Positions 3,225 to 21,934 are shown, counted from the first letter of the stretch. The stretch is DNA of 25,517 nt from an uncultured Intestinimonas sp. (GCF_944387245.1 NZ_CALXEE010000026.1:1-25517); one strand, 5' to 3'. Notes: a model not told the origin generated them from the letters alone. Numbers and translations: made by a program.

Positions 3225-3265
3225 GGGGGGAATCTGTGGCCGCAGGCGACTGAGAGAGAAACGGT

Positions 3266-3601
3266 CTCCGGCGGGCCCCTTTCTGGATGACCAGAAAGGG
3301 GCGAAAGAGTCAGTCAAAGAGGGGGATTTCGATTTCCCCCCTTCCCGACACCCAACCCCCTTGAAACGACCAAACACAGGCAAAAGGGGACCCAAATGGA
3401 GCCCAGCGAAGCGGGTCCATTTGGGGGAGGAGGGGCAAGGGAGCCGAGCGAGACCTGGCCGTCAGGCCAGGGTGAGCGGTGCGGACTTTGTCCCGACGAC
3501 GGCCCCCCTATTGGAAGTACCCCCCGGGGCTCTTCTACTGTTACGCCACTTGCACCGTCGGCTTACTCCGTAACGCCGCCGGTGCCCGGGCGTAGGGGCG
3601 G
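3266..3601 (+). repeat. Family-A repeat, copy 1 (~336 bp, hairpin-rich)
   Basis: Aligns by eye at roughly 90% identity with 5508-5853 in the same orientation. Contains hairpins cccctttctgg-atga-ccagaaagggg, cccaaatgga..tccatttggg and ctggcc-gtca-ggccag. Starts 42 nt after the gpr stop. Confidence 0.85.
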
Positions 3602-3630: not shown

Positions 3631-3673
3631 GCGTGGTACCGTGGCGCGTCTGGCAAACCGTGCCCCACAAATG
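3631..3673 (-). repeat. Family-C hairpin, inverted copy
   Basis: The reverse complement reads catttgtggggcacggtttgccagacgcgccacggtacc. This matches the motif TGTGGGGCGCG-GCTTCCCAGA-CGCGCC seen at 5875, 9121, 13893 and 16501. Confidence 0.7.
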
Positions 3674-3766
3674 AAACTTTCCCGTATCGGTGCGGCGGGC
3701 GATCAAAGGCCGCCCCTACACAGGCAAAACAGTGTCCAAAACCGTGCTTTCTTTCCGTCCCAGCCC

Positions 3767-3795: not shown

Positions 3796-3814
3796 GGCTC
3801 CACATTGGAAAAGG

Positions 3815-4041
3815 CAGTGACCGGGAGAAGTACGCGAGGACCCGGACCGCAGAGAGGAGCCGCTTGGGTGCAAGGCTCCCGACGGTCCCGCGGAAGGCGC
3901 CCGTGAGCCGCGGAGCGGAAATGCTCCGCCGTCTCGTCCCCGTTACGGACTTCGAGTGTGCGCCCCACGGGGCGTAAATTCAGGTGGTACCACGGACCGT
4001 CAGCGTTCGCCCTGAGCCATAAGCTCAGGGCGTTTTCTTTT
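3815..4041 (+). promoter_or_regulatory. T-box riboswitch leader, glycine (GGC) specifier, with intrinsic terminator
   Basis: AGAGAG plus a distal GGTGCAA loop (3851-3875). Specifier loop GAA-GGC-G..GTGAGC, with GGC at 3896-3898. Stem III cgcccc-ac-ggggcg. T-box motif AAATTCAGGTGGTACCACGG (3976-3995). Terminator cgccctgagc/gctcagggcg (4008-4032) followed by a T-run to 4041. Confidence 0.9.
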
Positions 4042-4077: not shown

Positions 4078-5499
4078 ATGAAAAACACCGAAAAGACCAT
4101 GGAACAGATCGTAGCCCTGTGCAAGGGCCGTGGCTTCATCTTCGCCGGCAGCGAGATCTACGGCGGCCTGGCCAACACCTGGGACTACGGCCCCCTGGGT
4201 GTGGAGCTCAAGAACAACGTGAAAAAAGCCTGGTGGAAGAAGTTCGTCCAGGAGAACCCCTACAACGTGGGTCTGGACGCCGCCATCCTCATGAACCCCC
4301 AGGTGTGGGTGGCCTCCGGCCACGTGGGCGGCTTCTCCGACCCCCTCATGGACTGCAAGGAGTGCAAGGAGCGCTTCCGCGCCGACAAGGTCATTGAGGA
4401 CTGGTGCGCCGAGACCGGCTTCACCCTGCCCAAGCCGGTGGACGCCCTGTCCCAGGATGAGATGAAGGCCTTCGTGGAGGAGCACAACATCCCCTGCCCC
4501 TCCTGCGGCAAGCACAACTGGACCGACATCCGCCAGTTCAACCTGATGTTCAAGACCTTCCAGGGCGTCACCGAGGACGCCAAGAACACCGTCTACCTGC
4601 GCCCCGAGACCGCCCAGGGTATCTTTGTCAACTTCCAGAACGTCCAGCGCACCACCCGCAGAAAGCTGCCCTTCGGCGTGTGCCAGGTGGGCAAGAGCTT
4701 CCGCAACGAGATCACCCCCGGCAACTTCACCTTCCGCACCCGTGAGTTCGAGCAAATGGAGCTGGAGTTCTTCTGCCAGCCCGGCACCGAGCTGGATTGG
4801 TTCAAGTACTGGAAGGAGTTCTGCCACAAGTGGCTGCTGGACCTGGGCATGAAGGACGAGAACCTGCGGCTCCGGGACCACGATCCCGAGGAGCTCTCCC
4901 ACTACTCCAACGCCACCACCGACTTTGAGTTCGTCTTCCCCTTCGGCTGGGGCGAGCTGTGGGGCGTGGCCAGCCGCACCAACTTCGACCTGAACGCCCA
5001 CCAGACCACCTCCGGCAAGGACATGACCTACTTCGACCAGGAGAAGAACGAGCACTATATCCCCTACGTCATCGAGCCCTCCCTGGGCGCCGACCGCGTG
5101 ACCCTAGCCTTCCTGGTGGACGCCTACGACGAGGAGGTGGTGGACGCCGAGAAGAACGACGTCCGCACCGTCCTGCGGCTCCACCCCGCCCTGGCCCCCT
5201 TCAAGTGCGCCGTGCTGCCCCTCTCCAAGAAGCTGGGCGACAAGGCCCGGGAGATCCAGGCCGAGCTCTCCAAGTACTTCATGGTGGACTACGACGACGC
5301 CGGCTCCATCGGCAAGCGCTACCGCCGCGAGGACGAGATCGGCACCCCCTACTGCATCACCGTGGACTTCCAGACCGTGGGCGACGACAAGACCCCCGCT
5401 GACAACTGCGTCACCGTCCGCGACCGCGACACCATGGACCAGGTGCGGATTCCCATCGATCAGCTCAAGGACTATATCGCTGAAAGAATGGCGTTTTAA
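4078..5499 (+). CDS. glyQS: Glycine--tRNA ligase (class II, homodimeric GlyQS type)
   Basis: The ORF track starts at 3958 inside the T-box. The real start is ATG 4078 ([22 protein letters not shown]..) after AAGGAG. Class II motifs are present ([29 protein letters not shown]). Confidence 0.96.
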
Positions 5500-5507
5500 G
5501 TAAATGC

Positions 5508-5853
5508 CTCCGGCGGGCCCCTTTCTGAATGACCAGAAAGGGGCGAAAGAGTCAGTCAAGGAGGGGGATTTCGATTTCCCCCTCCTTGACAATCCTCCCC
5601 TTAAAACGACCAAGCACAGGGAAAAGGGGACCCAAATGGAACCCGGCGAAGCGGGTCCATTTGGGAGAGGAGGGGCAAGGGAGCTCAGCGAGACCTGGCC
5701 GTCAGGCCGGGGTGAGCGGTGCGGACTTTGCCCCGACGATGGCCCCCCTATTGGAAGTACCCCCCGGGGCTCTTCTATCGTTACGCTGTCTGCACCGTCG
5801 GCTTACTTTGTAACGCCGCCGGCGCTCAGGCGTAGAGGCGGCCTACGGCCGCC
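5508..5853 (+). repeat. Family-A repeat, copy 2
   Basis: Direct repeat of 3266-3601. Starts 8 nt after the glyQS stop and ends in the hairpin ggcggcc-tac-ggccgcc. Confidence 0.85.
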
Positions 5854-5874
5854 CGTCGCGCCGCTATGGGACCC

Positions 5875-5916
5875 CATTGGCGCGGGGCGCGGCTTCCCAG
5901 ACGCGCCCGGTACCGC
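5875..5916 (+). repeat. Family-C hairpin
   Basis: cattggcgcggggcgcggcttcccagacgcgcccggtaccgc. Stem gggcgcg/cgcgccc with the conserved loop gcttcccaga. Confidence 0.7.
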
Positions 5917-5926
5917 ACCCAATATG

Positions 5927-5974
5927 CCCCCTCATCAGGTTGATTACGCCGCCGCTTCCCCCTGTGTGGGGAAG
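5927..5974 (+). repeat. Solo right-end-like module (CCTCATC + P-type palindrome)
   Basis: ccccctcatcagg ... cttcccc-ctgtgt-ggggaag (5955-5974). Same order as the right ends of the DUF559 element and the D elements, but with no partner left end nearby. Confidence 0.45.
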
Positions 5975-6007
5975 TTTTCCCCTTTCACAGACAAAAAGGA
6001 ATCAGAT

Positions 6008-7864
6008 ATGAAAAAAATCCCCCTCTTTCAGCGCCATGCCGACCAGTCCTGGCCGGTGTGGAAAACCACCCTCTTCTGGGGCTGGAACCTCTTCTGGGGC
6101 CTGTGTTCCGCCCTGGGCGTAGGCCTTGTGAGCCTGGTCTTTGCCGCCGTCATCGACCAGAAGGCCATGCTCCTGAGCTACTTCCAGAACCCCCTCATCG
6201 CCTTTCTGAACCTGGCCCCGGCGGTGCTCCTCTACTTCCTGCTCTATTTCATCCTGGGCCGGGCCTCCCTGGCCTACGCTCTCACCGCCGCCATCACCCT
6301 GGGCTTCACCATGGGCAGCTGGTTCAAGCTCCAGTTCCGCAACGACCCCCTCATGTTCGAGGACCTGCTCCTTCTGAAGGAGGCCGGCAACATGGCGGGG
6401 AAGTACCAGCTCTTCCTCACCAAGACTATGATCCTGGCCCTGGTGGTCCTCATCCTCGGCTGGCTCTTTCTCCACTTCTGCGTCCGGGGCCGCCCCGGCG
6501 CCCGCCTGCGGCTGCTGGGCTTCGCCCTGGCCGTCCTCTGCGCCCTCCCCGTGTGGAATATGACCCAGAGCGACGACATCTACAACAACCGCACCGCCAA
6601 CAACGGCCTCATCAACCAGTGGTCGGCCACTCAGGTCTACGTGTCCAAGGGCTTTGTCTATCCCTTCCTCCACAGCGTGAAGTCGGCCTCCGACGCCCCG
6701 CCGGAGGGCTATGACGCCGCCCGGGCCGAGACCATCCTGGCCGGCTGCGAGGACGCCGACATCCCCGAGAACAAAAAGGTGTCGGTGATCTCCATCATGC
6801 TGGAGTCCTACGACGACTTCTCCAAGTACGGCACCCCCACCCTGGACCCCAAGGTGTACGCCGACTACCACGCCCTGGAGGCCGAGAGCCTCACCGGCGA
6901 CCTCATCACCAACATCTTCGCCGGCGGCACCGTGGACTCGGAGCGGTGCTTCCTCACCGGGTTTGCCGATCTGGGCTCCTTCCGGTCGGCCACCAACTCC
7001 TACCCCTGGTACTTCCGCAGCCAGGGCTACACCGTTACCGGCTCCCATCCCTGCTACGCCTGGTTCTACAACCGGGAGAACATCAACGTGAACCTGGGCT
7101 TTGAGGACTACCGCTTCGTAGAGAACTACTTCTCTCCCATGACCGACGGCGGCGTGGGCTACGACGATCTCTTTTTCCCGGAGCTCATCAAGCTCTGGGA
7201 ACAGGACAAGGCCCTGGGTCAGCCCGTGTTCCAGTACAACCTCACCTACCAGGGCCACGGCCCCTACAACGACGACCAGACCTGGTGGGGCGACGACTAC
7301 GTACACAACGACAAGGGCTACACCCAGGCCGAGCTCAACATCCTCAACAACTACTTTGGCTCCGTCTACAACACCAACCAGAACCTGGTGGAGTTCTTCG
7401 ACTACTTCCGGGCAGAGGAGGAGCCGGTGGTCATCGTGGTCTTTGGCGACCACAACCCCTGGCTGGGGGACGGCAACTCGGTGTATGAGGCCATCGGCCT
7501 GGACCTGGACTTCTCCACCCCCGAGGGCTTTTACAACTACTACTCCACCCGGTACCTCATCTGGGCCAACGACGCCGCCAAGGAGGTTCTGGGCAACGAC
7601 TTCGTGGGGGAGGGCCCCACGGTGAGCCCCAACTTCCTCATGAACGTGGTCTTTGACGCCTGCGGCTGGGAGGGTCCGGCCTACATGCAGGCCACTCAGT
7701 CCGTCATGGAGCAGGTCCCCGTCATGAACACCCCCACCGGCCTCTACATGGAGGACGGCGCCCTCACCGGCACCCTCACCCCCGAGGGACAGGCCCTGGT
7801 CACCGACTACGACATGCTCCAGTACTACTACCGCAAGAACTTCATCTACGACGACCTGCGCTGA
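6008..7864 (+). CDS. LTA synthase family protein (membrane-anchored sulfatase / phosphoglycerol transferase-like)
   Basis: The ORF track starts at 5504 inside repeat A2. The likely start is ATG 6008 (MKKIPLFQ..) after AAAGGA. Several N-terminal TM helices are followed by a sulfatase-type domain (SIMLESYDDF, GGTVDSERCFLTG, VVFGDHNPW). Confidence 0.85.
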   Translation: MKKIPLFQRHADQSWPVWKTTLFWGWNLFWGLCSALGVGLVSLVFAAVIDQKAMLLSYFQNPLIAFLNLAPAVLLYFLLYFILGRASLAYALTAAITLGFTMGSWFKLQFRNDPLMFEDLLLLKEAGNMAGKYQLFLTKTMILALVVLILGWLFLHFCVRGRPGARLRLLGFALAVLCALPVWNMTQSDDIYNNRTANNGLINQWSATQVYVSKGFVYPFLHSVKSASDAPPEGYDAARAETILAGCEDADIPENKKVSVISIMLESYDDFSKYGTPTLDPKVYADYHALEAESLTGDLITNIFAGGTVDSERCFLTGFADLGSFRSATNSYPWYFRSQGYTVTGSHPCYAWFYNRENINVNLGFEDYRFVENYFSPMTDGGVGYDDLFFPELIKLWEQDKALGQPVFQYNLTYQGHGPYNDDQTWWGDDYVHNDKGYTQAELNILNNYFGSVYNTNQNLVEFFDYFRAEEEPVVIVVFGDHNPWLGDGNSVYEAIGLDLDFSTPEGFYNYYSTRYLIWANDAAKEVLGNDFVGEGPTVSPNFLMNVVFDACGWEGPAYMQATQSVMEQVPVMNTPTGLYMEDGALTGTLTPEGQALVTDYDMLQYYYRKNFIYDDLR

Positions 7865-7874
7865 TGGCAGGAGA

Positions 7875-7916
7875 GTGCCACGCCCCGCCGGTCCCGGCGG
7901 GGCGTGGCACTTTTTT
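7875..7916 (+). terminator. Rho-independent terminator of the LtaS-family gene
   Basis: 17-bp arms gtgccacgccccgccgg / ccggcggggcgtggcac, followed by TTTTTT (7911-7916). Confidence 0.85.
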
Positions 7917-7918
7917 GG

Positions 7919-7944
7919 ACCTTCCCCCCTGGTGGGGGAAGGTT
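7919..7944. repeat. Solo P-type palindrome
   Basis: accttccccc-ctggt-gggggaaggt, then tttt. There is no adjacent H hairpin or GGATGAGGG motif. Confidence 0.7.
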
Positions 7945-8091
7945 TTACGGAGGTCTTTCCACATTTCGCTCTTTTTTGTGGAAAGTTTCCCGCTATTTCA
8001 CCCCCCTTTCCCGGTACGCACCCAATTTTTCTCCACATTTCTATTTGAAATGTGGAAGGTTTTTAAAGAAATAAATTGGAGGCATACACCC

Positions 8092-9033
8092 ATGGACAAT
8101 CTTATCTTCTGTCTCAACGCCACGGTACCCGTTTTTCTCATGATGCTGCTGGGCTTTGTGTTCCGGCGGGTGGGCTTTGTGGACAAGGCCTTCGCCGATA
8201 AGATCAACGGCTTTGTCTTTAAGGCCGCCCTGCCCGTGCTCCTCTTCCAGGACATGTCGGGCGCCGACTTCTTCGCCCAATGGGACGGCCCCTTCGTGGG
8301 ACTGTGCTTCGGCATGACAGCGGTGAGTATCCTGGCCATGGTTCTCCTCTCCCACGTGCTCAGCCGGGAGCTCCGGGGCGAATTCGTCCAGGCCTCCTAC
8401 CGCAGCAGCGTGGCGCTGCTGGGGGTGGCCTTCATCCAGAATATCTACGGCACCGCCGGCGCCGCCCCCCTCATGATTATCGGCGCCGTGCCCCTCTACA
8501 ACATCGCCGCCGTCCTCATCCTGGCCCTCATGCATCCCGACCAGGGGGGCCTGAACCGGGACCGGCTCCTGCGCACCCTCAAGAAGGTGGTCACCAACCC
8601 CATCCTCATCGGCATCGGCATCGGCATGCTCTGGTCCCTGCTGCGGATACCACAACCCGTTATCCTCCAGAAGTCGGTGGCCAGCTTCGCCGGGGTGGCC
8701 ACCCCCATGGGCCTCATCGGCCTGGGGGCCTCCGTGGACCCGGAGCAGGCACTGGCCAAACTCAAGCCCTCCCTCCTGGCCGTCTTCTGCAAGCTCTTTC
8801 TCTTTGCCGCCGTATTCCTGCCCCTGGCGGTATGGCTGGGCTACCGCACCGACAAGCTGGTCACCATCCTCATCATGCTGGCCTCCTCCACCACCTCCAG
8901 TTCCTACGTTATGGCCAGAGGCCAGGGCTACGACGGCGCCCTCACCGCCAACACCATCCTGCTCACCACCTTCTTGAGCGCCTTTACCCTTACCGGATGG
9001 CTCTACGTCCTCCGGTCCATGGGACTTATTTAA
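8092..9033 (+). CDS. AEC (auxin efflux carrier) family transporter
   Basis: The ORF track starts at 7864. The real start is ATG 8092 (MDNLIFCLNATVPVFLMMLLGF..) 7 nt after GGAGG. The polytopic membrane protein shows the AEC-family pattern. Confidence 0.85.
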   Translation: MDNLIFCLNATVPVFLMMLLGFVFRRVGFVDKAFADKINGFVFKAALPVLLFQDMSGADFFAQWDGPFVGLCFGMTAVSILAMVLLSHVLSRELRGEFVQASYRSSVALLGVAFIQNIYGTAGAAPLMIIGAVPLYNIAAVLILALMHPDQGGLNRDRLLRTLKKVVTNPILIGIGIGMLWSLLRIPQPVILQKSVASFAGVATPMGLIGLGASVDPEQALAKLKPSLLAVFCKLFLFAAVFLPLAVWLGYRTDKLVTILIMLASSTTSSSYVMARGQGYDGALTANTILLTTFLSAFTLTGWLYVLRSMGLI

Positions 9034-9045
9034 GTACATACAAAA

Positions 9046-9089
9046 GGACCGCCGACGGGCTTTGATGCACCCGCCGGCGGTCCTTTTTT
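9046..9089 (+). terminator. Rho-independent terminator of the AEC transporter gene
   Basis: Stem ggaccgccg (9046-9054) / cggcggtcc (9075-9083) with an inner cggg/cccg pairing, then TTTTTT. Confidence 0.75.
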
Positions 9090-9120
9090 GTCGGATTTTA
9101 TGGACGATAGGGGGCAGCCT

Positions 9121-9152
9121 CGATTGTGGGGCGCGGCTTCCCAGATGCGCCA
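9121..9152 (+). repeat. Family-C hairpin
   Basis: cgattgtggggcgcggcttcccagatgcgcc. Confidence 0.7.
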
Positions 9153-9420
9153 AACCCCGCCCCGAACCATTACCATTCTGTTATGTGTAAGGACGGGGGA
9201 GACGGCTTAAAACCCGTTTTGCTTTCCTGCTGGAAAAAGAACGGTTTTTGGAATCCAAAGAAAAAGGGGCTCCCGTGCGGGTTAAGCGGCTCTAAATAGG
9301 AATCCGGCGGCCCGTCTTTACGCCCCCATAGAGCACCAGCCCCGTCTACGGTAGACTACCTGGGCGGAACAGAGACAAGTTGTGGTTCTATCCAACATTT
9401 TTTCGCCGCCTGCGTGGGTG
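9153..9420 (+). repeat. Family-B repeat, copy 1
   Basis: Aligns by eye (roughly 85-90%) with 13616-13853 and 20003-20272. Shared core: ggacggg.gagacgg..aaaacccgtttt gcttccctgctggaaaaagaacggttttt..atccaaagaaaaagggg..ccaaataggaatccg..tttacgccccc..ttttt.gccgcctgcgtgg. Confidence 0.85.
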
Positions 9421-9461
9421 AAAGTTGCGGCGTAAGTTAGCGGGTGGCCTGCAAAGACGGC

Positions 9462-9501
9462 GCAAAACGAGCGCAGGGGCGGATGGTATCCGCCCCTGCG
9501 C
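9462..9501 (-). terminator. rnhA terminator formed by a G-type hairpin
   Basis: Perfect 14-bp stem gcgcaggggcggat (9471-9484) / atccgcccctgcgc (9488-9501) with a 3-nt loop. On the minus strand it is followed by tcgttttg. It lies 27 nt downstream of the rnhA stop. Confidence 0.7.
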
Positions 9502-9527
9502 TTATCTCCCCACACAGGGAGGTTTTT

Positions 9528-9965
9528 TTACTTGAACTTCTTACTCTCCATCACCGCCAGCTCATCACAGCGGTTGTTGTAGGGATTCTCCGCATGCCCT
9601 TTGACCCAGTGGAGGTTGACGGTATGGTAGTCGCACAGATTCAGGAGCTTCTCCCAAAGGTCGGGGTTGAGGGCGGGCTTCTTGTCGCCCTTCACCCAGC
9701 CCCGGGCCTTCCAGCCCCGGGCCCAGCCCTTCTCCAGGGCATCAATGACGTACTTGGAGTCGGAATAGAGCTCCACGATACAGGGCTCCTTCAGCGCCTC
9801 CAGGGCGGTGATGACCCCGGTGAGCTCCATGCGGTTGTTGGTGGTGTGCCCCTCGCCGCCGGAGAGCTCCTTTTTGAATTTGCCGTACATCAGGATGGCA
9901 CCCCAGCCCCCGGGGCCCGGGTTCCCCGAACAGGCGCCGTCGGTATAGATGGTGACTGTTTTCAT
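9528..9965 (-). CDS. rnhA: Ribonuclease HI
   Basis: 145 aa from ATG 9965: [22 protein letters not shown]...NNRMEL...YSDSKYV...[18 protein letters not shown], the classic RNase HI motifs. GGAAGGAGG lies immediately upstream. In the ORF track it is the C-terminal half of the 9528-10406 ORF. Confidence 0.9.
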
Positions 9966-10373
9966 AGGCCTCCTTCCATACCTTCCCCCCTCAGGGGGGA
10001 AGGTGTCCCCGCAGGGGACGAATGAGGGGGCGCTGCGCTCTGTCTCCTGTCGGATCACAGCGCACACTCCCTCAAATCGTTGTGCGATGTCCAAATTACT
10101 GAACCGGAGCAGCCGTAGATGATGGACCTGCTCCAAATACAGGTCCCGCCGTCGGTCCGCGGCCTGCCCCTGGTCCTCATAGTGCTGAGAGCCGTCCAGC
10201 TCAATGGCCAGTCTGGGCGAATGACAGTAAAAATCCACAATATAGGGTCCGAATACCACTTGACGGCGGAAGGGGAGAGGAAAGGTACGAAGAAACTGAT
10301 ACCACAGCTTTTGCTCCTCTTTTGTGGGGTTTTTTCGGAGCTTCCGGGCATTCTCCCGCATCCATGGGAGCAT
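9528..10373 (-). CDS. DUF559 (Vsr-like endonuclease domain) ORF with no stop of its own, reading in frame into rnhA
   Basis: From ATG 10373 ([65 protein letters not shown]) the DUF559 pattern is clear. No stop codon occurs before the rnhA ATG (linker ..[33 protein letters not shown]..). The GTG at 10406 is an alternative start. Confidence 0.7.
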
Positions 10374-10439
10374 ATCCACACCCCCCTCATCCGCCCCAGT
10401 GGGCACACTGGGGCACCTTCCCCCCTGTGGGGGGAAGGT
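9980..10439 (-). mobile_element. Candidate autonomous element: DUF559 gene bracketed by structured ~50-60-nt inverted ends
   Basis: Left end 9980-10030: ACCTTCCCCCC-tca-GGGGGGAAGGT, GTCCCC-gca-GGGGAC, GAATGAGGGGG. Right end 10381-10439: CCCCCCTCATCC, CCCCAGTG-ggca-CACTGGGG, ACCTTCCCCCC-tgtg-GGGGGGAAGGT. The two ends are inverted counterparts. Confidence 0.6.
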
Positions 10440-10463
10440 TTTTCTTTTCTCCTCCGCTGAACC

Positions 10464-10847
10464 TTACAGCTCCTCCAGGATCTCCTTGCGCTTCTGCTCG
10501 TACTCCTCCTGGGTGATGAGGCGCTGGTCGTAGAGGGTGCGCAGCTCTGTGAGGCGGGCCTGGGTATCGCCGGGGGCGGCGGCGTCATGAGCATGCTCAG
10601 CACCGCCCTCTTCCTCAATGTGAATTTCGGGGCCAATATAGCCCTTGCCAAAGGCCTGGTAGAAGTTGGTCCCGGCGATGACGCCGGCGATGATGGTCCA
10701 AAGGACGCCAAAGATGGCGCCGAAGCCGCCGGTCATGGAAAATGAGGGGATGACCACAAAGAGGCCGATGAGCACAAAGATGATGCCCACCACGCCCCCC
10801 ACGACGGATCCGCTTTTACTGGGGCGGTAAGTCACACGTTTTCTCAT
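10464..10847 (-). CDS. SHOCT-domain membrane protein
   Basis: 127 aa from ATG 10847, with a GGAAAGGAG RBS. The track's 10889 start would overlap the upstream gene. Two predicted TM helices are followed by the C-terminal motif LTELRTLYDQRLITQEEYEQKRKEILEEL, typical of SHOCT. Confidence 0.6.
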   Translation of the reverse strand: MRKRVTYRPSKSGSVVGGVVGIIFVLIGLFVVIPSFSMTGGFGAIFGVLWTIIAGVIAGTNFYQAFGKGYIGPEIHIEEEGGAEHAHDAAAPGDTQARLTELRTLYDQRLITQEEYEQKRKEILEEL

Positions 10848-10851
10848 TCTG

Positions 10852-11066
10852 TCACTGCTCCTTTCCGTCCTCGGCGATTCCCTTTTCACGCCGGGCCTTT
10901 AGGCCCCGCAGGACATAAAACAGGGAGAGCCCGGTGGCCAGTACGAACCACACTAGGGCAAAGGCGCCGGCCAGATCCCACCGGTCGGCCACCGCCAGCA
11001 CCACAAGGGCCACGCCAAATCCGTACATCAGAATACGAAGGGGGGAGATGCACTCCTTCCGGGTGC

Positions 11067-11070
<4 letters not shown>
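10852..11070 (-). CDS. Small two-TM membrane protein, translationally coupled to gyrA
   Basis: 72-aa ORF. Its GTG start overlaps the gyrA TGA (GTGA at 11067-11070). It has two hydrophobic helices, and its stop lies 4 nt before the next gene's ATG. No family was recognised. Confidence 0.4.
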
Positions 11071-13568
<2,498 letters not shown>

Positions 13569-13615
13569 CTATTGTTTCCTCCTTGGGTAGAGGTTCGGTT
13601 GATTTTTACGCTTGG

Positions 13616-13882
13616 GGACGGGAGAGACGCGTTCGAGCTTTCAAAAACCGTTTCGCTTCCCTGCTGGAAAAAGAACGGTTTTTGCAATCCAAAGAAAAAG
13701 GGGCTCCCGTGGGGGTTAGGTGGCTCCAAATAGGAATCCGCCGGCCCGTCTTTACGCCCCCATAGAGCACCGGCACCGTCCACAGGTGACTCCGCCGGTG
13801 GAACAGGGATACGCTGTGGTCCTATCCAACATTTTTTCGCCGCCTGCGTGGATGGGGGGCGGGACGTGGCGCCGCTGCCTGT
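13616..13882 (+). repeat. Family-B repeat, copy 2 (in the gyrB-gyrA spacer)
   Basis: Same core as 9189-9420 and 20041-20272, plus a ~28-nt extension shared with copy 3 (gacgtggcgccgctgcctg). Contains an 11-bp perfect stem caaaaaccgtt / aacggtttttg. Confidence 0.85.
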
Positions 13883-13892
13883 TTTTCCCTCC

Positions 13893-13924
13893 TATTGTGG
13901 GGTGCGGCTTCCCAGACGCACCCC
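13893..13924 (+). repeat. Family-C hairpin (stem variant with a compensated change)
   Basis: tattgtggggtgcggcttcccagacgcacccc. The stem is ggtgcg/cgcacc here and ggcgcg/cgcgcc elsewhere. The loop is identical. Confidence 0.7.
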
Positions 13925-13927
13925 TAA

Positions 13928-14126
13928 ACCTTCTCCCTCGCAGGGAGAAGGTGGCATTTGCGGAGCAAATGACGGATGAGGGTGGGTCGGTATATTTGTT
14001 CTATCCCACGCAACCCGTCCAGCATAGCTGGCCGGGCCTACGCTGAAAATGTGCTACCGCCACATTTTCTTCACGCTGCGGCCTCATCCGGCCCTGCGGG
14101 CCACCTTCCCCCCTCAGGGGGGAAGA
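13928..14126. mobile_element. D element copy 1: ORF-less MITE/REPIN-like element with the DUF559-element ends
   Basis: Left end: ACCTTCTCCC-tcgca-GGGAGAAGGT, gcatttgc-ggag-caaatg.c, GGATGAGGGTG (13974-13984). Right end: GCCTCATCCGG (14081-14091), ggccc-tgc-gggcc, ACCTTCCCCCC-tca-GGGGGGAAG. The interior has an A-run/stem/T-run hairpin aaaatgtg..cacatttt (14046-14068). Confidence 0.7.
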
Positions 14127-14139
14127 TCAAAAAGGTCCC

Positions 14140-16143
<2,004 letters not shown>

Positions 16144-16151
16144 TTACCGAA

Positions 16152-16175
16152 GTAGGGAGCGGATTTATCCGCTCC
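16152..16175 (+). repeat. G-type hairpin
   Basis: gtagggagcgga-ttt-atccgctcc. It has the same leader (GTAGGG) and architecture as the hairpins at 3591, 5831, 9474 and 19978. Confidence 0.5.
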
Positions 16176-16187
16176 GCCGGGTTCGTT

Positions 16188-16448
16188 CTATTCAAAAGTT
16201 CCGCTCTCCACCCGGCCACGGAGGGTGGCGGCGGAGAGCTGGGAGAGGTATGTGAGGGTGCCCAGCTCCGACCGGCAGAGCACCAGGGATTTGGGCAGGT
16301 CCATGGACACATCCACCAGCTCGCCCTCCCGCTCGGCCTTTTTTAAAAATTCCCGGGTGATGCGAGAGTCGGTGGTGGTGTCCAGGTCGAAAATGCCGAT
16401 GACGTCCCGAAAGGGGACCACCACCGACTGTCCCAGATGCAAATACAT
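16188..16448 (-). CDS. remB: DUF370 / RemB (YaaB) family protein
   Basis: 86 aa. It has the expected size and sits between recF and gyrB. The sequence MYLHLGQSVVVPFRDVIGIFDLD...SLVLC is typical of DUF370. Confidence 0.8.
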   Translation of the reverse strand: MYLHLGQSVVVPFRDVIGIFDLDTTTDSRITREFLKKAEREGELVDVSMDLPKSLVLCRSELGTLTYLSQLSAATLRGRVESGTFE

Positions 16449-16480
16449 GGCGGACCTCCTTTCGTTGGGGTGGGGGAGCT

Positions 16481-16573
16481 CTGTTGTGGGGCCGTTTCAT
16501 CTGTGGGGCGCGGCTTCCCAGACGCGCCCATGGCACCACTTGATTTTGTGGGGCGCGACGACCTCGGCACGCC
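16481..16573 (+). repeat. Three tandem family-C hairpin units
   Basis: ctgttgtggggccgtttcat (truncated unit), ctgtggggcgcggcttcccagacgcgccc (canonical unit), tttgtggggcgcgacgacctcggcacgcc (variant loop). Confidence 0.65.
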
Positions 16574-16580
16574 ATATAAA

Positions 16581-16719
16581 ACCTTCCCCCTTCCAGGGGG
16601 AAGGTGGCGGCGTGAGTCGCCGGATGAGGGTGGGCTGGTACGTTGAATTTGGCTTTTGTTCTATCCGGCTCCCCCTAATCCGGCCCTTCGGGCCACCTTC
16701 CCCCCTGTGGGGGGAAGGT
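16581..16719. mobile_element. D element copy 2 (short form, 139 bp)
   Basis: Left end: ACCTTCCCCC-ttcca-GGGGGAAGGT, ggcggc-gtga-gtcgcc, GGATGAGGGTG (16622-16632). Right end: CCCTAATCCGG, ggccc-ttc-gggcc, ACCTTCCCCCC-tgtg-GGGGGGAAGGT (16695-16719). The interior matches D1 and D3 up to ttctatcc, then lacks ~70-80 nt. The right end lies 2 nt from the recF stop. Confidence 0.7.
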
Positions 16720-16721
16720 TT

Positions 16722-17825
16722 TCAGACCAGCTCTCCGCCGTGGATATGGAATACGGCACCGTGGTCCAATCCCTCTAAACCGTCGTCCTCGCAGCAGGTG
16801 ATGAATACCTGGCCGCCGGTGATGCGGTGGAGGACGAACTCCTGCCGCCGCCGGTCCAGCTCGCTGAGCACGTCGTCCAGCAGCAGCACCGGCCACTCCC
16901 CGGTGTCGTGGTAGAAGATCTCCCGGCAGCCCAGCTTCAGGGAGAGGGCCGCCGTCCGGGTCTGCCCCTGGGAGGCGTAGGTCTTGGCCTCCAGGTCGTT
17001 AATCCGCACCACCATATCGTCCTTGTGGGGTCCGGTAAGACACTGCCGGGCTTCCAGCTCGGCCTGGCGGTGGGTGCGCTGGTGCTCAAGCACCGCCTCC
17101 AGGAGGTCCCGGGTGGGGACCAGGGGGTCGGCCACGGTGCTCACCGTAGCGTAGCCCAGGTCCAGCTGCTCCCGCCCACCGGAGAAGTCGGCATGGACGG
17201 CGGCCGCCGTCTCCCGGAGCCGCTTTAAGAAGTGGGCCCGGTAGTGGATGAGCACCGCCCCCGCCTGGGCCATCTGGTAACTGAAGTCGTCCAGGGTGTC
17301 CAGCAGGTCGGGCTTTTCCTCCCAGTCCCGGAGGATGCGGGTCTTGTGCTCATAGAGCCGCTTGTACTGGGACAGGGCGGCGGCGTACCGGGGCCGGAGC
17401 TGGCAGATGCACTCGTCCAGAAACCGCCGCCGCTCGGCGGCCCCCGCCCGGATGAGGGACAGGTCCTCGGGGCAGAAGAGGACGGTTTGCAGCACCCCGG
17501 AGAGCTCCCCGGCGGTCTTGAGGCGTACCCCGTTGGAGAAGAGCTGCCGCCGCTGGCCCCGGTGGAGCCGGGCCTCCAGCCGGAAGGTCCGCTGCCGGGC
17601 CTCCACCGTGGCCTTCACCACGGCGGAGGGCGCCTCCAGCCGGATGAGCTCCCGGTCGTACCGGGCCCGGTGGGAGGAGGCGGTGGAGAGATAGGCCACG
17701 GCCTCCAGCAGATTGGTCTTGCCCTGAGCATTCTCCCCGTAGATCACGTTGACCCCCGGGGAGAAAGCCGCCTCCAGCCGGCGGTAGTTGCGAAAGTCCT
17801 CCAGGGCCAGGGCGTCCACCCTCAT
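16722..17825 (-). CDS. recF: DNA replication/repair protein RecF
   Basis: 367 aa. It has the Walker A motif [13 protein letters not shown] and the signature SQGQ...[11 protein letters not shown]. Its ATG overlaps the yaaA stop (ATGA). Confidence 0.97.
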
Positions 17826-18034
17826 TGGACGGTGAGCTCCACGCCCTCCAGCGCCACCACGTCACCGGGCCGCAGCTTCTTGCCCCGCATGGTGCACACC
17901 TCGCCGTTCACCTGCACCTCACCGGCCTGGATGGCCTCCTTGGCCTCGCCGCCGGTCTCGGTGACCCCGGCGAACTTCAAAAGGGCGTCCAGCTTAATAA
18001 ATTCCGTCTGGATCTTCACTGTCTGCTTCTGCAT
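17822..18034 (-). CDS. yaaA: S4-domain RNA-binding protein YaaA
   Basis: 70 aa, [25 protein letters not shown]....RGKKL..GD. It occupies the conserved position between dnaN and recF. Confidence 0.85.
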
Positions 18035-18046
18035 GGCTGCCTCCCG

Positions 18047-18481
18047 TCACGACTCAGCGTGCTCCCGAAGGAGCCGCTCAAAAAGTTCATAGGCCTCCGG
18101 CAGCACCCGCTTCAGGGCCACCGGCTTGTTGTTCTTCCGGTCGTAGAAGAAGTGGCCGGAGGTACCCTCCGCCCGGAGGACCCCCGTCTCGGCGTCCACC
18201 ATGCGGTAGACCACCTTCATCTTGGCGGGGGAGAGTTTCGTTACAGTCATATGGATGGCCACCGTCTCCCCGAACCGGGTCATGGACCGGTATTTGCAGG
18301 AGATGTCGGTGAGGGCAAAGTCGATGCCCGCCGCCATGGCCCTTTCATAGCCCCAGCCGATCTGGTCCATGAAGTCGGTACGGGCCTCCTCCATCCAATG
18401 GATATAATTCCCATGATAGACCACGCCCATGCCGTCGGTCTCGTAAAACTGGGCCTTTCTCAGATAGGGACGCAGTTCCAT
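18047..18481 (-). CDS. Acyl-CoA thioesterase, hotdog fold (YbgC/4HBT family)
   Basis: 144 aa. The motif ETDGMGVVYHGNYIHWMEEAR is the typical 4HBT/YbgC active-site region. It starts 1 nt after the dnaN stop and ends 12 nt before the yaaA start. Confidence 0.85.
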   Translation of the reverse strand: MELRPYLRKAQFYETDGMGVVYHGNYIHWMEEARTDFMDQIGWGYERAMAAGIDFALTDISCKYRSMTRFGETVAIHMTVTKLSPAKMKVVYRMVDAETGVLRAEGTSGHFFYDRKNNKPVALKRVLPEAYELFERLLREHAES

Positions 18482-18482
18482 G

Positions 18483-19595
18483 TCACTCGCCTGCCTTCAG
18501 CCGAACGGGCAGCACCATATAGAGGAAGTTCTCCTCCCCCTCGGCGGGGAGGATGACGCAGGGGGCCACCCCGGAACTGAGCTCCAGCCGCACCTTGTCG
18601 GTGGGGGCGGCCTTCAGGGCGTCCATGAGGTAGCGGTTGTTGAAGCCGATTTCCAGATTCTGGCCATCCCCGGAGATGGGGCACTGGTCGGCGGCGTCGC
18701 CGATGCCGGTTTTGGTGGTGATGCTCAGCACGTTGTCCCCAAAGACGCAGCGCAGGGGGGACTTGAGCTTGTCGGAGATGATGAGGGAGACGCGGTCGAT
18801 GGAGGTGAGGAGGGTGCGGGTCTCGCCCTCCACCTTGATGGCGTTGTTGCGGGGGATGGCCTGGCGGTAGGCCAAAAACTCACCTTCCAGCCGGCGGGAC
18901 ACCAGCATGGTGTCCCCCATGCGGAACATGACGTGACGGTCGCCCTCGATGACCAGGGCCTCGTCCTGGCTGTCGCCGCAGATCTTTTCCACCTCATTGA
19001 GGGCGGCGCCGGGCACCACGAAGGAGAAGGAGAGGGCGCCGTCCTTTTCCAGAATGGGCTCGTGGCGGAGGGCCAGCCGGTAGCCGTCCACGCTGACCAT
19101 GGTGAGGCCGTCGGCGCTCACCTCGAAGAGGGAGCCGGTGTGGATGGGGCGGGACTCGTTGTCGCTGACGGCGAAAATGGTCTGCCGGATCATGGAGCCC
19201 AGCTTGTCCCGGGAAATGGAGAAGCTGTTCTGGTCCTCCACGGCGGGCAGGTCGGGAAAGTCCTCGGGATCGGTGGCCAGGATGTTAAACTTGCTCATGC
19301 CGCAGGTGATGTTCACCATATAGCCGTCGGCGGAGAAGGACACCACGTCGTCGGGCAGCTTGCGGATGATCTCGCCAAAAAGGCGGGCGGAGAGGACCAG
19401 GCTGCCCTCCCGCTCGATCTGGGCGGGGACAATGGTGCGGATGCCGGTCTCCAGGTTGTAGCCGGTGAGGCGGAGCTGGTCTCCGGCCTCCACCAGAATG
19501 CCCTCCAGGGCGGGAATGGAGCTCTTGAGGGAGACGGCCCGGGCCGTGGTGGCGATGGCCGACTGAAGGAGTGCTTTTTCACAGGAAAACTTCAT
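18483..19595 (-). CDS. dnaN: DNA polymerase III beta subunit (sliding clamp)
   Basis: The ORF track extends to 19913 through the DnaA-box cluster. The real start is ATG 19595 (MKFSCEKALLQSAIATTARAVS..), giving 370 aa. The C-terminal ..YLMDALK.. motif is typical of DnaN. Confidence 0.95.
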   Translation of the reverse strand: MKFSCEKALLQSAIATTARAVSLKSSIPALEGILVEAGDQLRLTGYNLETGIRTIVPAQIEREGSLVLSARLFGEIIRKLPDDVVSFSADGYMVNITCGMSKFNILATDPEDFPDLPAVEDQNSFSISRDKLGSMIRQTIFAVSDNESRPIHTGSLFEVSADGLTMVSVDGYRLALRHEPILEKDGALSFSFVVPGAALNEVEKICGDSQDEALVIEGDRHVMFRMGDTMLVSRRLEGEFLAYRQAIPRNNAIKVEGETRTLLTSIDRVSLIISDKLKSPLRCVFGDNVLSITTKTGIGDAADQCPISGDGQNLEIGFNNRYLMDALKAAPTDKVRLELSSGVAPCVILPAEGEENFLYMVLPVRLKAGE

Positions 19596-19639
19596 GGGAG
19601 TGGGTTCCCTTCCTTTCGTGCTCCGCTCGTTTTTGAGGA

Positions 19640-19818
19640 GAGGAGAGGATAAAAGATAGAAATAGTACTCGTAGTATAAAATATTGTGGAAAAGCGTCGG
19701 AAAGCCTTGGGAGAGAGGACGCGGGGCGTCCACAGGGGTGGTGGACAAATTTCGAGGGTTTCCACACAGGGGAAAAAGGGCGAAAAATTGTCCACAGGGG
19801 ATTATCCACATTTCCACA
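19640..19818 (-). other. oriC module between dnaA and dnaN: AT-rich unwinding candidate plus DnaA-box cluster
   Basis: Boxes relative to TTATCCACA: perfect at 19802-19810; TTGTCCACA at 19788-19796; TTTTCCACA (minus strand) at 19685-19693; 2-mismatch boxes at 19740-19748, 19758-19766 and 19810-19818. The AT-rich stretch 19651-19684 has a 3-nt periodic array TAG AAA TAG TAC TCG TAG TAT AAA ATA directly abutting a box. Confidence 0.75.
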
Positions 19819-19977
19819 AAAACCGGTGGATTTCGACCCTTTGGGTTTTCCAGCGGTAAATGGGTATTTATACAGAAAATGCATAGAGTTGCATGCTGAG
19901 TATGCAGGGCCATGCAGGATTTCCGTCATTTGCAGGAGGGCCGTTTTTCGCCTTCCCTGAAAGGCTGTTTGCCTTGT

Positions 19978-20002
19978 CGTAGGGGCGGACAGCATCCGCC
20001 CG
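19978..20002 (+). repeat. G-type hairpin
   Basis: cgtaggggcgga-cagca-tccgcccg. Confidence 0.6.
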
Positions 20003-20300
20003 TTAAACCACGTACCGGCCCATTGCTTTCTGTTGCGTAAAAGGACGGGAGAGACGGCTCAAAACCCGTTTTGCTTCCCTGCTGGAAAAAGAACGGTTTT
20101 TGAAATCCAAAGAAAAAGGGGCTTCTAAGCGGGTTAGGTGGCTCCAAATAGGAATCCGGCGGCCCGGCTTTACGCCCCCGTTGAGGTCCAGCCCCGTCTA
20201 CGGTAGACTACCTGGGCGGAACAGGGGCAAGCTGTGGTCCTATCCCCACTTTTTTTGCCGCCTGCGTGGGTGGGTGTCGGGGCGTGGTGGCGCTGCCTGG
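20003..20300 (+). repeat. Family-B repeat, copy 3 (in the dnaA-dnaN spacer)
   Basis: Aligns with 9153-9420 including the ~35-nt left linker, and with 13616-13882 including the right extension. Confidence 0.85.
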
Positions 20301-20346
20301 GATTGCCTCATCTGCAACGTGGGGTGGTTTGAGGGGCGGTGCGCTA

Positions 20347-20557
20347 ACCTTCCCCCATCCAGGGGGAAGGTGGCATTTGCGGAGCAAATGACGGATGAGG
20401 GTGCGTTAGTGTGGCGGATTTGGCTTTTTTTCTATCCAGCGAAACCCGTCCAGCATAGCTGGCCGGGCCTACGCTAAAAATGTGGCACCGGCACATTTTT
20501 TTCACGCTGCGGCCTCATCTGCCCCTTCGGGGCACCTTCTCCCCCGGGGGAGAAGGT
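20347..20557. mobile_element. D element copy 3 (long form, 211 bp)
   Basis: Left end: ACCTTCCCCC-atcca-GGGGGAAGGT, gcatttgc-ggag-caaatg.c, GGATGAGGGTG (20393-20403). Right end: GCCTCATCTG, tgcccc-ttc-ggggca, ACCTTCTCCCCC/GGGGGAGAAGGT (20534-20557). The interior is collinear with D1. Confidence 0.7.
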
Positions 20558-20580
20558 TTTTGTGGGGAGTGGGCCTTTGA

Positions 20581-20604
20581 CCTTTCCTCTTCCAGGGGGA
20601 AGGC
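20581..20604. repeat. Degenerate P-type palindrome abutting the dnaA stop
   Basis: cctttcctc-ttcca-gggggaagg (imperfect 5' arm), ending 1-2 nt from the dnaA stop codon. Confidence 0.4.
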
Positions 20605-20605
20605 T

Positions 20606-21934
20606 TTACTCGTACCGGGCGTTGATATTGGCCCGGATGTCCTTGATGACCTCGGAGATCTCGGGGGTGGTCTTTTTGAGCTTTTCGATGCGCTCGATGG
20701 AGTGGAGGACGGTGGTGTGGTCCCGGTTCTCGAATTCCCGGCCGATCTCCTTCAGGGACATGTTGGTCATCTCCCGGATGAGGTACATGGCCACCTGCCG
20801 GGCCAGGGCGGTGTCCTTGGTACGGCCCTGCCCGCGGAGGGCGCTGTTTTCGATGTTATAGAAGTTGCAGACCTCCTCGATGATGACGTCGGAGGTGGGC
20901 ATGATGTCGGAGGGGTCCTTGAACATATCCCGCACGGCCCGGGTGACGGTGGCGGCGTCGATGCTGCTCCCCTCCAGGTCCCGGAGGGCCATGATCTTGT
21001 TGACGGTGCCCTCGATCTGCCGCACGTTGGCGGTGATGTTCTCGGCCACGTACTGCAAAACCGCCTCGGGCAGCTCCACCCCCATGCGGATGGCCTTGTT
21101 TTTGATAATGGCCATGCGGGTCTCGTAGTCCGGGGGCTGGATGTCGGCGATGAGGCCCCACTCGAACCGGGTCTTCAGACGGTCCTCCAGCTTGAGCATC
21201 TCCTTGGGGGGACGGTCGGCGGTAAAGACGATCTGTTTCCGGGTCTCATAGAGGGTATTGAAGGTGTGGAACATCTCCTCCATGGTGGAGTCCTTGCCGG
21301 CGATGAACTGGACGTCGTCCATCAAAAACACGTCGGCGGAGCGGAACTTCTCCCGGAACTCCTGGTTGCGGCCCTCCCGGATGGCCTGGATGAGCTCATT
21401 GGTGAAGGCGTCGCCCTTGATGTAGACGATGCGGTAGTCGGGGTGGTCGTCGTGGATCTTGTGGGCGATGGCGTAGAGGAGGTGGGTTTTGCCCAGGCCG
21501 GACTCGCCGTAGATGAAGAGGGGATTGTAGTTCATGGCGGGGTGGTCGGCCACCGCACGGGCGGCGGCGTGGGCGAACTTGTTGGACGAGCCCACAACGA
21601 ACCGCTCAAAGGTATACTCCTCCGTGCCGGGGAGGAAACTGTCGTCCTTGGGGGCGGTATTGCGCTGCCGGCGCTCCAGATCGCCGTCCCCCAGCACCTC
21701 CACCTGGAAGTCGGCGGAGAAGAGCTCGTGGAGGGCCTTCTGGATGGGGGGCAGGTAGCGGGAGACGATGATGTCCCGCTTGAAGTCGGACGGGGTGTGG
21801 AGGATGAACTTGTCGCCCTCCATGGATACGGCCACCGTATCGTCAAACCAGGTATGGATGGTGGTGGCGGTCATGTCCGCCTCCATGAGGACAAGGACCC
21901 GGGACCAGATGTCGGCGGCGGAATTCATGGCCAT
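20606..21934 (-). CDS. dnaA: Chromosomal replication initiator protein DnaA
   Basis: The ORF track starts at TTG 21958. ATG 21934 (MAMNSAADIWSRV..) lies 8 nt after GGGAGG, giving 442 aa. It has the AAA+ Walker A motif GESGLGKTHLL and the C-terminal DnaA-box-binding helix (..HTTVLHSIERI..). Confidence 0.98.
   Translation of the reverse strand: MAMNSAADIWSRVLVLMEADMTATTIHTWFDDTVAVSMEGDKFILHTPSDFKRDIIVSRYLPPIQKALHELFSADFQVEVLGDGDLERRQRNTAPKDDSFLPGTEEYTFERFVVGSSNKFAHAAARAVADHPAMNYNPLFIYGESGLGKTHLLYAIAHKIHDDHPDYRIVYIKGDAFTNELIQAIREGRNQEFREKFRSADVFLMDDVQFIAGKDSTMEEMFHTFNTLYETRKQIVFTADRPPKEMLKLEDRLKTRFEWGLIADIQPPDYETRMAIIKNKAIRMGVELPEAVLQYVAENITANVRQIEGTVNKIMALRDLEGSSIDAATVTRAVRDMFKDPSDIMPTSDVIIEEVCNFYNIENSALRGQGRTKDTALARQVAMYLIREMTNMSLKEIGREFENRDHTTVLHSIERIEKLKKTTPEISEVIKDIRANINARYE

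Follow-up and report, generated by a model that had tools for sequence, protein, structure and literature searches.

The repeats known as BoxC, PIT or TMECO have been catalogued since the 1990s. BoxC corresponds to the PIT elements (Hoyne et al. 2000, as cited in PMC4666352) and to TMECO (Holder et al. 2015, Nucleic Acids Research). The TMECO form, 5'-CCCTCNCCC N3-6 GGGNGAGGG N3 GGGNGAGGG, was described as a class II purine-motif intrastrand triplex, and its folding in vitro was shown by circular dichroism and nuclear magnetic resonance (PMC4666352). E. coli MG1655 has 23 copies, and 3610 were counted in 262 proteobacterial genomes, with none reported in Salmonella; types A and B pair as inverted doublets, and local genome variability or instability was noted around the copies (PMC4666352). 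Holder et al. assigned no function, mobility mechanism or partner protein to these repeats and made no link to a mobile element (PMC4666352). Here we describe repeat units in a stretch of 25,517 nucleotides from an uncultured Intestinimonas sp. (GCF_944387245.1 NZ_CALXEE010000026.1:1-25517), referred to in its full length as the window. Judged from their sequence, these units look like a hairpin-linked variant of the intrastrand-triplex BoxC/PIT/TMECO design, new in Clostridia. The interpretation that we favor, with a probability of roughly 0.6, is that they are single-stranded DNA (ssDNA) hairpin-linked triplex repeats arranged in inverted doublets, with the DUF559 protein as their putative cognate nuclease.

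The window comes from around the replication origin of an Oscillospiraceae-like genome of high GC content, with dnaA, dnaN, recF, a RemA-like gene, gyrB, gyrA and rnhA on the minus strand. Its nearest relatives by DUF559 and RecF are Pseudoflavonifractor, Intestinimonas, Flavonifractor and Lawsonibacter. Repeats crowd the intergenic spacers. A first-pass annotation had described their ends as a fixed palindrome (P), any hairpin (H) and a fixed single-stranded 9-mer, and all of the palindromes, hairpins and 9-mers that it listed were present, with coordinates within 1 nt. P has the form ACCTTC[C/T]CCC..GGG[G/A]GAAGGT. Its arm CCTTCYCCC occurred 19 times in the window against 2.0 expected, a count reached by 0/100 shuffles, and the 9-mer GGATGAGGG, with at most 1 mismatch, occurred 37 times against 13.3 expected. 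The parts are laid out as P-H-9mer ... 9mer'-H'-P' in four inverted pairs, E2 to E5 (Table 1). A scan of the window with a covariance model (CM) trained on 61 units returned exactly eight full units, at 48-60 bits, and one degraded unit.

Eighty loci were fetched from other genomes by means of homologues of the DUF559 protein encoded in E2, and DUF559 genes across many Clostridia were found to be flanked by the same unit architecture. The CM gave 293 matches in 1.08 Mb, and pairing statistics were obtained for the 150 best matches from the window and the 80 related loci. Stem cells were paired at 93.2%, compared with 76.7% after shuffling and 45-57% after sliding. Changes on both sides were detected in 12/17 pairs, and the covariation score was 0.399 versus 0.136, with 0/500 shuffles reaching the observed value. 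The P helix was 98.2% paired. The C-to-T change in its 5' arm, which had been reported as matched by a G-to-A change in the 3' arm, was compensated in the larger sample (C-G in 116 units, T-A in 20, broken in 2), and a second P pair alternated between C-G (95 units) and G-C (41 units). All seven H pairs in the model co-varied. When units were anchored by a regular expression that made no use of H, H formed a hairpin with 4 bp or more in 134/141 units, and 112 distinct sequences were represented. An independent sample from viral contigs, anchored on the P 3' arm and the 9-mer only, had an H hairpin in 84/106 distinct segments, compared with 38/106 after shuffling. With more copies, then, neither arms that were commonly uncompensated nor a commonly non-pairing H emerged, and the structural constraint on the element ends was borne out by pairing and covariation over the 150 units. 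The proposal that P is maintained for structure and not for sequence was not upheld, as its sequence is also conserved, with a 5' arm that is always polypyrimidine and a 3' arm that is always polypurine.

Compensation had also been taken to show selection. The changes are indeed compensated, yet template-switch correction of quasi-palindromes could also yield them. This possibility belongs to an explanation in which the units are ends of an ordinary double-stranded element, of the terminal inverted repeat or miniature inverted-repeat transposable element (MITE) type, with no fold under selection, compensation arising mechanically by template-switch correction or by gene conversion among arms and among copies, and DUF559 being either a passenger or a homing-endonuclease-like parasite that entered the spacer of doublets already in place. 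Near-perfect P palindromes could be maintained by templated correction, and doublets with and without the gene have common ends. Templated correction explains neither the 112 unrelated H stems with their strand-specific c(GNA)g loop nor the mirror covariation described below, and we consider an ordinary double-stranded element unlikely.

The idea that H may be any hairpin was correct in that H is constrained mainly in its structure; it missed a preferred closing pair and loop. A 5'C-G3' closing pair was present in 88/107 distinct hairpins, GNA triloops in 52/67 and TNC triloops in 0/67. Among the tetraloops, GNNA accounted for 17/34 (11 of them GNRA) and the reverse-complement type for 0. Aligned stems contained 71 G.T/T.G cells versus 8 A.C/C.A cells, and mismatches internal to H were G.T in 10 cases versus A.C in 3, or 6 versus 0 in the viral contigs. 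This polarity held on the strand 5'-P-H-GATGAGG-3' at both element ends and so on opposite DNA strands. As the polarity is selected on opposite strands at the two ends, a single transcript cannot satisfy it. The fold is most simply that of single-stranded DNA, with the strand running from outside to inside at each end.

An RNA element had been offered as the alternative, and it could take the form of 3' untranslated region or terminator structures, mRNA stabilizers or a 5' leader by which the Shine-Dalgarno (SD) sequence of DUF559 is exposed or masked. Tolerance of G.T far above A.C and the GNA/GNRA loops are as expected for RNA, the start codon of DUF559 is closely preceded by a third block that resembles an SD, and this SD might base-pair with the 3' copy CCCTCATCC. 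In the window, moreover, each element has its proximal unit 2-50 nt past a stop codon, an arrangement in which the mRNAs concerned would contain P, H and the 9-mer as sense sequence. One transcript would, however, have UNC loops at one of the two ends, and their DNA equivalent, TNC, was not seen among the 67 triloops. An open reading frame (ORF) followed 20/116 viral-contig units (17%) versus 18% of random positions, and no clear or consistent orientation of units relative to flanking ORFs was detected, on ORF calls that were crude. A U-run is lacking, with only about 3 A/T bases beside P. At the gathering threshold, Rfam gave nothing on the units across the whole window, where only a T-box leader reached it, and at E <=1 it gave no relevant match in 5500-21000. 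Watson-Crick RNA folding would also leave the mirror covariation unexplained, and purine-motif triplexes are stated to be unable to form in RNA (PMC4666352). The same polarity at both ends, the lack of a gene orientation preference and the lack of an Rfam family disfavor RNA, and we regard it as very unlikely.

Several RNA motifs and signals were considered and rejected individually. The 9-mer serves as an SD sequence for DUF559 and not in general, given the ORF frequencies above. An intrinsic (rho-independent) terminator was rejected because there is no U-run and because only the 3 nt beside P are A/T rich, with background composition beyond. Type B units contain CTGATGAGG, which is reminiscent of the CUGAUGA core of the hammerhead; there was no Rfam match and no stem II/GAAA context. 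Apparent UUCG/UNCG tetraloops in the 3' hairpins are, in the correct register, triloops that read GNA on the unit strand.

The 9-mer did not behave as an independent, fixed single-stranded word; it co-varied with the P purine arm, of which it is a mirror repeat under purine-motif triplex rules. Lineages with other arms carried other 9-mers, which were always the purine arm reversed with T allowed for A. For example, the purine arms AAAGGGAGC, AAGGGGAGG, TAGGAGAGC, TGGGGGAGC, AGGGGAAGG and GGGGGAAGG were accompanied, after H, by the blocks TGAGGGATTG, GGAGGGGTTG, TGAGAGGTTG, TGAGGGGGTA, GGATGAGGTG and GGATGAGGGG, respectively. A mirror scan was performed on any perfect 8-bp pyrimidine/purine palindrome with an adjacent hairpin, leaving the downstream block unused, and matches were scored by the rules G.GC, A.AT, T.AT and T.CG. 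The last of these covers the outermost C-to-T correspondence, which we read as a putative T.CG triplet. The match was bimodal, with 80 unique arm/motif combinations at 7-9 of 9 positions. The mean match was 5.67. For permuted pairs it was 4.37, with 4.74 the highest value among 2000 permutations, and the nonreversed arm gave 4.38. Positions 1, 4, 7, 8 and 9 co-varied, and 0/1000 permutations reached the observed value. In a viral-contig replicate, for which the search pattern left position 9 free, this position had arm A with motif T in 49 cases, arm G with motif G in 47 and other combinations in 3 (Fisher 1e-24). The triplets G.GC, A.AT and T.AT are those of antiparallel GA/GT (purine-motif) triple helices (PMC2532714).

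The mirror relationship also accounts for the variant P copies. The common arm of the window, GGGGAAGG, leaves one mismatch against GGATGAGG, and the variant arm GGAGAAGG removes it, its reverse being GGWWGWGG, i.e., GGATGAGG. Because the variant arm matches GGATGAGG perfectly, the C-to-T/G-to-A "compensatory change" is a three-way consistent state.

These results bear on a second rival, in which hairpins and a free 9-mer, with no triplex, are the substrate of a nuclease or transposase, for instance an HUH-like one, and the arm resembles the 9-mer because a protein reads both or because purine sequence is of low complexity. Hairpins with a conserved 3' word resemble REP/RAYT, IS200/IS605 ends and relaxase nic sites, and the strand-specific loops and wobble tolerance fit such a system as well. 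The mirror covariation, however, obeys triplet rules at five positions in many lineages and was replicated, with the nonreversed control at baseline; the homologous TMECO design folds into a triplex in vitro (PMC4666352); and the elements have DUF559 as their embedded gene, with no HUH gene in association. A free 9-mer is improbable on this evidence. The earlier suggestion of a structure-specific nuclease acting on ssDNA was a good lead in that the elements bracket a DUF559/Vsr-like gene; its free single-stranded 9-mer was not retained.

The hairpin-linked triplex would form on a strand reading AAA, pyrimidine arm, small loop, purine arm, T, variable hairpin H and G/A/T block. The two arms would fold into the P hairpin, H would provide a compact, stable turn after the purine arm reaches the P stem base, and the third block would run back up the P stem, antiparallel to the purine arm, to give a purine-motif (reverse-Hoogsteen) triple helix. 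This fold would be selected on single-stranded DNA. DUF559 might then recognize or cut the folded unit and, by analogy with RAYT for REP/REPIN, might drive the spread, turnover and rearrangement of doublets in trans. Three-block covariation, strand polarity, two doublet classes, DUF559 association in two phyla and local turnover were observed directly. Each of the rival explanations covers part of the data, and none explains mirror covariation and symmetric strand polarity together.

Comparison with BoxC/PIT/TMECO indicated a shared design. The units have a pyrimidine block and a complementary purine block on the same strand, followed by a G/T/A third block that mirrors the purine block and is antiparallel to it, as also seen in the viral-contig replicate. 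The third blocks themselves are similar (GGGTGAGGG in TMECO and GGATGAGGG in the window). Both repeats are multicopy and intergenic, occur as two subtypes in inverted doublets, show local genome variability and have copies that adjoin, or are fused to, the 3' end of a DUF559 gene. The differences lie in loop 2, where T and a hairpin of 13-23 nt, itself with a c(GNA)g loop, take the place of 3 nt, and in sequence, as the window arms are CCTTCCCC/GGGGAAGG rather than CCCTCNCCC/GGGNGAGGG. With arms CCTTC[C/T]CCC/GGG[G/A]GAAGG and this third block, the units depart from the TMECO consensus and represent the same design in a different sequence. Unlike TMECO, they are hosted by Clostridia (Oscillospiraceae and relatives) and their phage contigs, and their doublets often enclose a DUF559 gene. 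The published search (ITxF) was limited to loops of 1-6 nt, and the paper mentions no Clostridia, no endonuclease and no connection to DUF559 (PMC4666352). Loop 1 of the units is 0-7 nt; loop 2 exceeds the short-loop range, and because of that limit units with H as the second loop lie outside the reach of ITxF.

REP/REPIN-RAYT systems share with the present units short palindromes next to a conserved word, inverted doublets, a unit type that varies with lineage and probable action on ssDNA hairpins. In both, two inverted units flank a small nuclease gene that keeps its position and is inherited vertically, and gene-less doublets occur elsewhere. The two differ in that the gene enclosed here is a Vsr-like PD-(D/E)XK DUF559 (PF04480) and not HUH/Y1, and in the triplex-type third block. 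Subterminal hairpins, strand-specific signals, very small size and gene-less derivatives with the same ends are likewise found in IS200/IS605 and MITEs. In the present case, however, the ends are inverted, so that the active strand differs per end, whereas IS608 has both hairpins on one strand; moreover, no target-site duplication was seen and no known transposase family is involved.

The DUF559 protein of E2 has 118 amino acids and is a full-length homologue of E. coli YcjD. It matched NCBIfam PRK09767 over positions 3-116 of 117 and PDB 3HRL (E 1.9e-12), and residues E58, D60, H64 and D73 were invariant in 26 DUF559 homologues. At the P stem base, a G.T juxtaposition closes the stem in 102/138 units (alignment A3, columns 4/34), and A-T does so in 22/138, the window copies among them. 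Vsr-family nucleases naturally act on T:G mismatches, and on this ground the conserved G.T could be a candidate cut site. DUF559 has been placed in a PD-(D/E)XK-derived fold group with Vsr and I-Bth0305I (PMC3424549; PMC9403480), a homing endonuclease with an EDxHD motif. The DUF559 gene of the window differs from these in having no adjacent methyltransferase gene, no intron or intein setting and no extra DNA-binding domain.

The gene is embedded in its flanking units. Its SD-like sequence GAGGGGGG sits in the third block of the upstream unit, 5-9 nt upstream of the start codon, and its ORF continues into the 3' unit, whose third block is read in complement, giving tails such as ...TFPPQGGR. 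Convergent unit pairs fell into two classes, 24 empty doublets of 113-217 bp and 24 of 444-607 bp that contained only a DUF559 gene. With a stricter, sequence-agnostic unit detector, a triplex-type unit in the expected orientation was directly beside 58/84 DUF559 genes, compared with a background of 0.083 units/kb/strand. In the window, the DUF559 ORF, lacking a stop, crosses the downstream unit into rnhA. DUF559 and rnhA formed a single open frame in 6/6 loci from four genera (window, L001, L002, L003, L081 and L082), with linkers of 22-42 codons, that of L001 holding a 50-nt nested insertion. Gene callers predict 277-amino-acid DUF559+RNase_H proteins, and from these frames a real DUF559-RNase HI fusion or read-through protein is possible.

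A corresponding arrangement was found in enterobacteria. The DUF559 ORFs of Enterobacter asburiae and Klebsiella quasipneumoniae terminate with CCCTCACCC-CGG-CCCTCTCCC-TGA, which is an inverted type B TMECO, and the PSPRPSP ending of ~20/25 enterobacterial DUF559 homologues, from a dozen genera, is the translation of an inverted TMECO. In E. coli, ycjD lies 167 nt from TMECO #9, which appears in the supplement of PMC4666352 without comment. No Salmonella protein was among the top 120 YcjD homologues, which fits the reported absence of TMECO from that genus. For the double-stranded element discussed above, the grouping of DUF559 with the I-Bth0305I homing endonuclease, the abundance of units where DUF559 was not seen and the positional stability of the DUF559 locus count in its favor; against it, the 3' end of DUF559 is joined to an inverted unit from Clostridia to Enterobacteriaceae, a conserved arrangement that repeated chance invasion would hardly produce. 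No published link of DUF559/YcjD to these repeats was found in a literature coverage that was incomplete, and the link appears to be unreported. In one survey, DUF559 genes were enriched among predicted "programmed inversion" targets. As side observations, a 14-bp perfect hairpin, CCTCATTCTGACAA..TTGTCAGAATGAGG, lies over the GTG start of E. coli ycjD (L209, NC_000913.3, 8408-8830; also L210 and L213) and contains GAATGAGGTG, the Clostridial third-block word, and a partial duplication of the ycjD 3' end precedes TMECO #9.

Turnover of the units was evident between close relatives. Strains with RecF 96-97% identical to that of the window had different units, doublets or nested repeats after recF, gyrB and dnaA, and each of the compared intergenic sites contained different or nested repeats. 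Among the near-identical F. plautii-like loci L003, L086, L087 and L088, gyrA, a small ORF and DUF559 were constant and were followed by four different downstream contexts, with junctions after P, in the P center and at the gene/9-mer' boundary. Unit flanks showed only an A/T-rich trinucleotide, itself inverted, and no direct duplication was seen. Viral contigs contained at least 120 unit-bearing stretches, with 117 strong matches in 0.68 Mb. No DUF559 gene was present in these stretches; if the protein acts on units, it would have to do so in trans.

Units also occur in head-to-tail tandem arrays (period of ~64 nt) and doublet chains (L025, 10455-10633; L066, 10458-10638; L036, 9558-10563), and the protein tail P0017 is the translation of three tandem P copies. 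A ~50-nt mini-element, ACGGGTYAAGGAAG...GGACAGTCRGA, with two small hairpins, was found inside the P 5' arm (ACC^...CCCCC) at the same point in several loci (L001, ~5540-5600; L081, ~130-230; L082, between 3823 and 4830; L085, ~3800-3900), and appears to be a nested repeat targeting the P palindrome.

A number of points weigh against the favored interpretation. The counted units share descent, so that p-values overstate their independence, and the CM alignment is biased toward pairing. The main family keeps a constant triplet mismatch, a third-strand A over G-C at position 6; no precedent was found for a 13-23 nt hairpin as a triplex linker; and the triplex fold of the units, in vivo included, is a prediction from sequence. 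Neither a target-site duplication nor a clean pair of empty and filled sites was detected among the strains with 96-97% identical RecF. The F. plautii-like contigs are low-coverage metagenome assemblies in which breakpoints could be artifacts. The gyrA-DUF559 linkage is stable across genera and the gene itself was not seen moving, and no DUF559 gene was present in 1.07 Mb of viral-contig stretches with at least 166 units. Action of DUF559 on the units is something that we purely infer.

Table 1. Repeat units, genes and other features of the window
Feature	Position(s)	Strand	CM score (bits)	Triplet match	Parts and remarks
Degraded single unit	5928-5979	-	23.3	7/8	P-like GCTTCCCC..GGGGAAGT (degenerate P, 5953-5976); weak H; TGATGAGGG
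Solo P	7919-7943				ACCTTCCCCC-CTGGT-GGGGGAAGGT; without H or third block; P-only CM matches on both strands
rnhA (RNase HI)	9528-9966	-			Pfam PF00075 in ORF 9528-10406
Element E2	9977-10442				Inverted pair
E2 left unit	9977-10029	+	53.1	8/11	3' side of DUF559 gene; P 9980-10004; H 10005-10019; third block GAATGAGGG 10020-10028
DUF559 (Vsr-like) nuclease gene	10020-10373	-			ATG 10373; Pfam PF04480, E 1.7e-24
E2 right unit	10383-10442	-	60.1	9/11	5' side of DUF559 gene; P 10415-10439; H 10393-10414; third block GGATGAGGGGGG
Element E3	13925-14130				Inverted pair
E3 left unit	13925-13983	+	52.8	10/11	Match perfect over stem; P 13928-13952 (T/A variant, CCTTCTCCC/GGGAGAAGG); H GGCATTTGCGGAGCAAATGAC; third block GGATGAGGGT
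E3 right unit	14080-14130	-	48		P 14103-14125; 10-15 nt past gyrB stop codon
Element E4	16578-16722				Inverted pair
E4 left unit	16578-16631	+	55.3	9/11	P 16581-16605; H GGCGGC-GTGA-GTCGCC, one G.T pair
E4 right unit	16672-16722	-	54.4		P 16695-16719; P end 2 nt from recF stop codon
Element E5	20344-20560				Inverted pair
E5 left unit	20344-20402	+	52.7	9/10	P 20347-20371
E5 right unit	20511-20560	-	54.4		P 20534-20557 (T/A variant, no loop)
Degenerate solo P	20583-20604				Directly past dnaA stop codon; repeat family D3 member 20567-20607
DnaA-box-like cluster	19680-19860				TTATCCACA/TGTGGAAA words; between dnaN and E5; probably oriC
D1 repeat	9176-9433, 13610-13867, 20028-20285				~270 nt
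TTGTGGGGCGCGGCTTCCCAGACGCGCC repeat	5880-5908, 9124-9152, 13895-13923, 16501-16529, 16546-16574; inverted 3643-3677				GC-rich hairpin; 6-7 bp stem GGCGCG/CGCGCC
~85-nt and ~245-nt repeat families	3257-3601, 5499-5841				93% and 91% identity; duplicated 2.24 kb apart
T-box leader	3808-4017				Near the ~85-nt/~245-nt repeat families

Other features of the window are included in Table 1. DnaA-box-like words cluster in what is probably oriC, and nine triplex-type units lie within 15 kb of this putative origin. Origin-proximal clustering has been described for TMECO in E. coli K-12 (Holder et al., PMC4666352). The D1 repeat was also found in L081-L085, with at least 13 copies in the species group and 82-88% identity between copies. 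It was present or absent between close strains, L082 being without D1 between gyrB and gyrA; D1 had no Rfam match, and its conservation was too high to judge covariation or a structured RNA. The TTGTGGGGCGCGGCTTCCCAGACGCGCC hairpin repeat shares spacers with the units.

A broader reading, which we regard as possible rather than probable, is that DUF559/YcjD proteins are the cognate nucleases of intrastrand-triplex repeats, both BoxC/PIT/TMECO and the Clostridial variant. The ~450-bp DUF559 doublet might in that case be a minimal autonomous selfish element that recognizes triplexes, with empty doublets and single units as its nonautonomous progeny. If this is true, DUF559 activity would explain the genome instability reported around intrastrand-triplex repeats. 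Independently of this reading, the enrichment of DUF559 among "programmed inversion" targets may follow from the flanking inverted repeats. The spurious peptide tails ...PSPRPSP and ...TFPPQGGR are explained by ORFs that run into units. The window extends the triplex-repeat design to Clostridia and phage contigs in a form that is invisible to loop-limited searches, and points to a candidate partner in a small, tractable family, DUF559 (including E. coli YcjD), whose gene is fused to the repeats in two phyla. It also flags the units as intergenic turnover hot spots beside the core genes dnaA, recF and gyrB.

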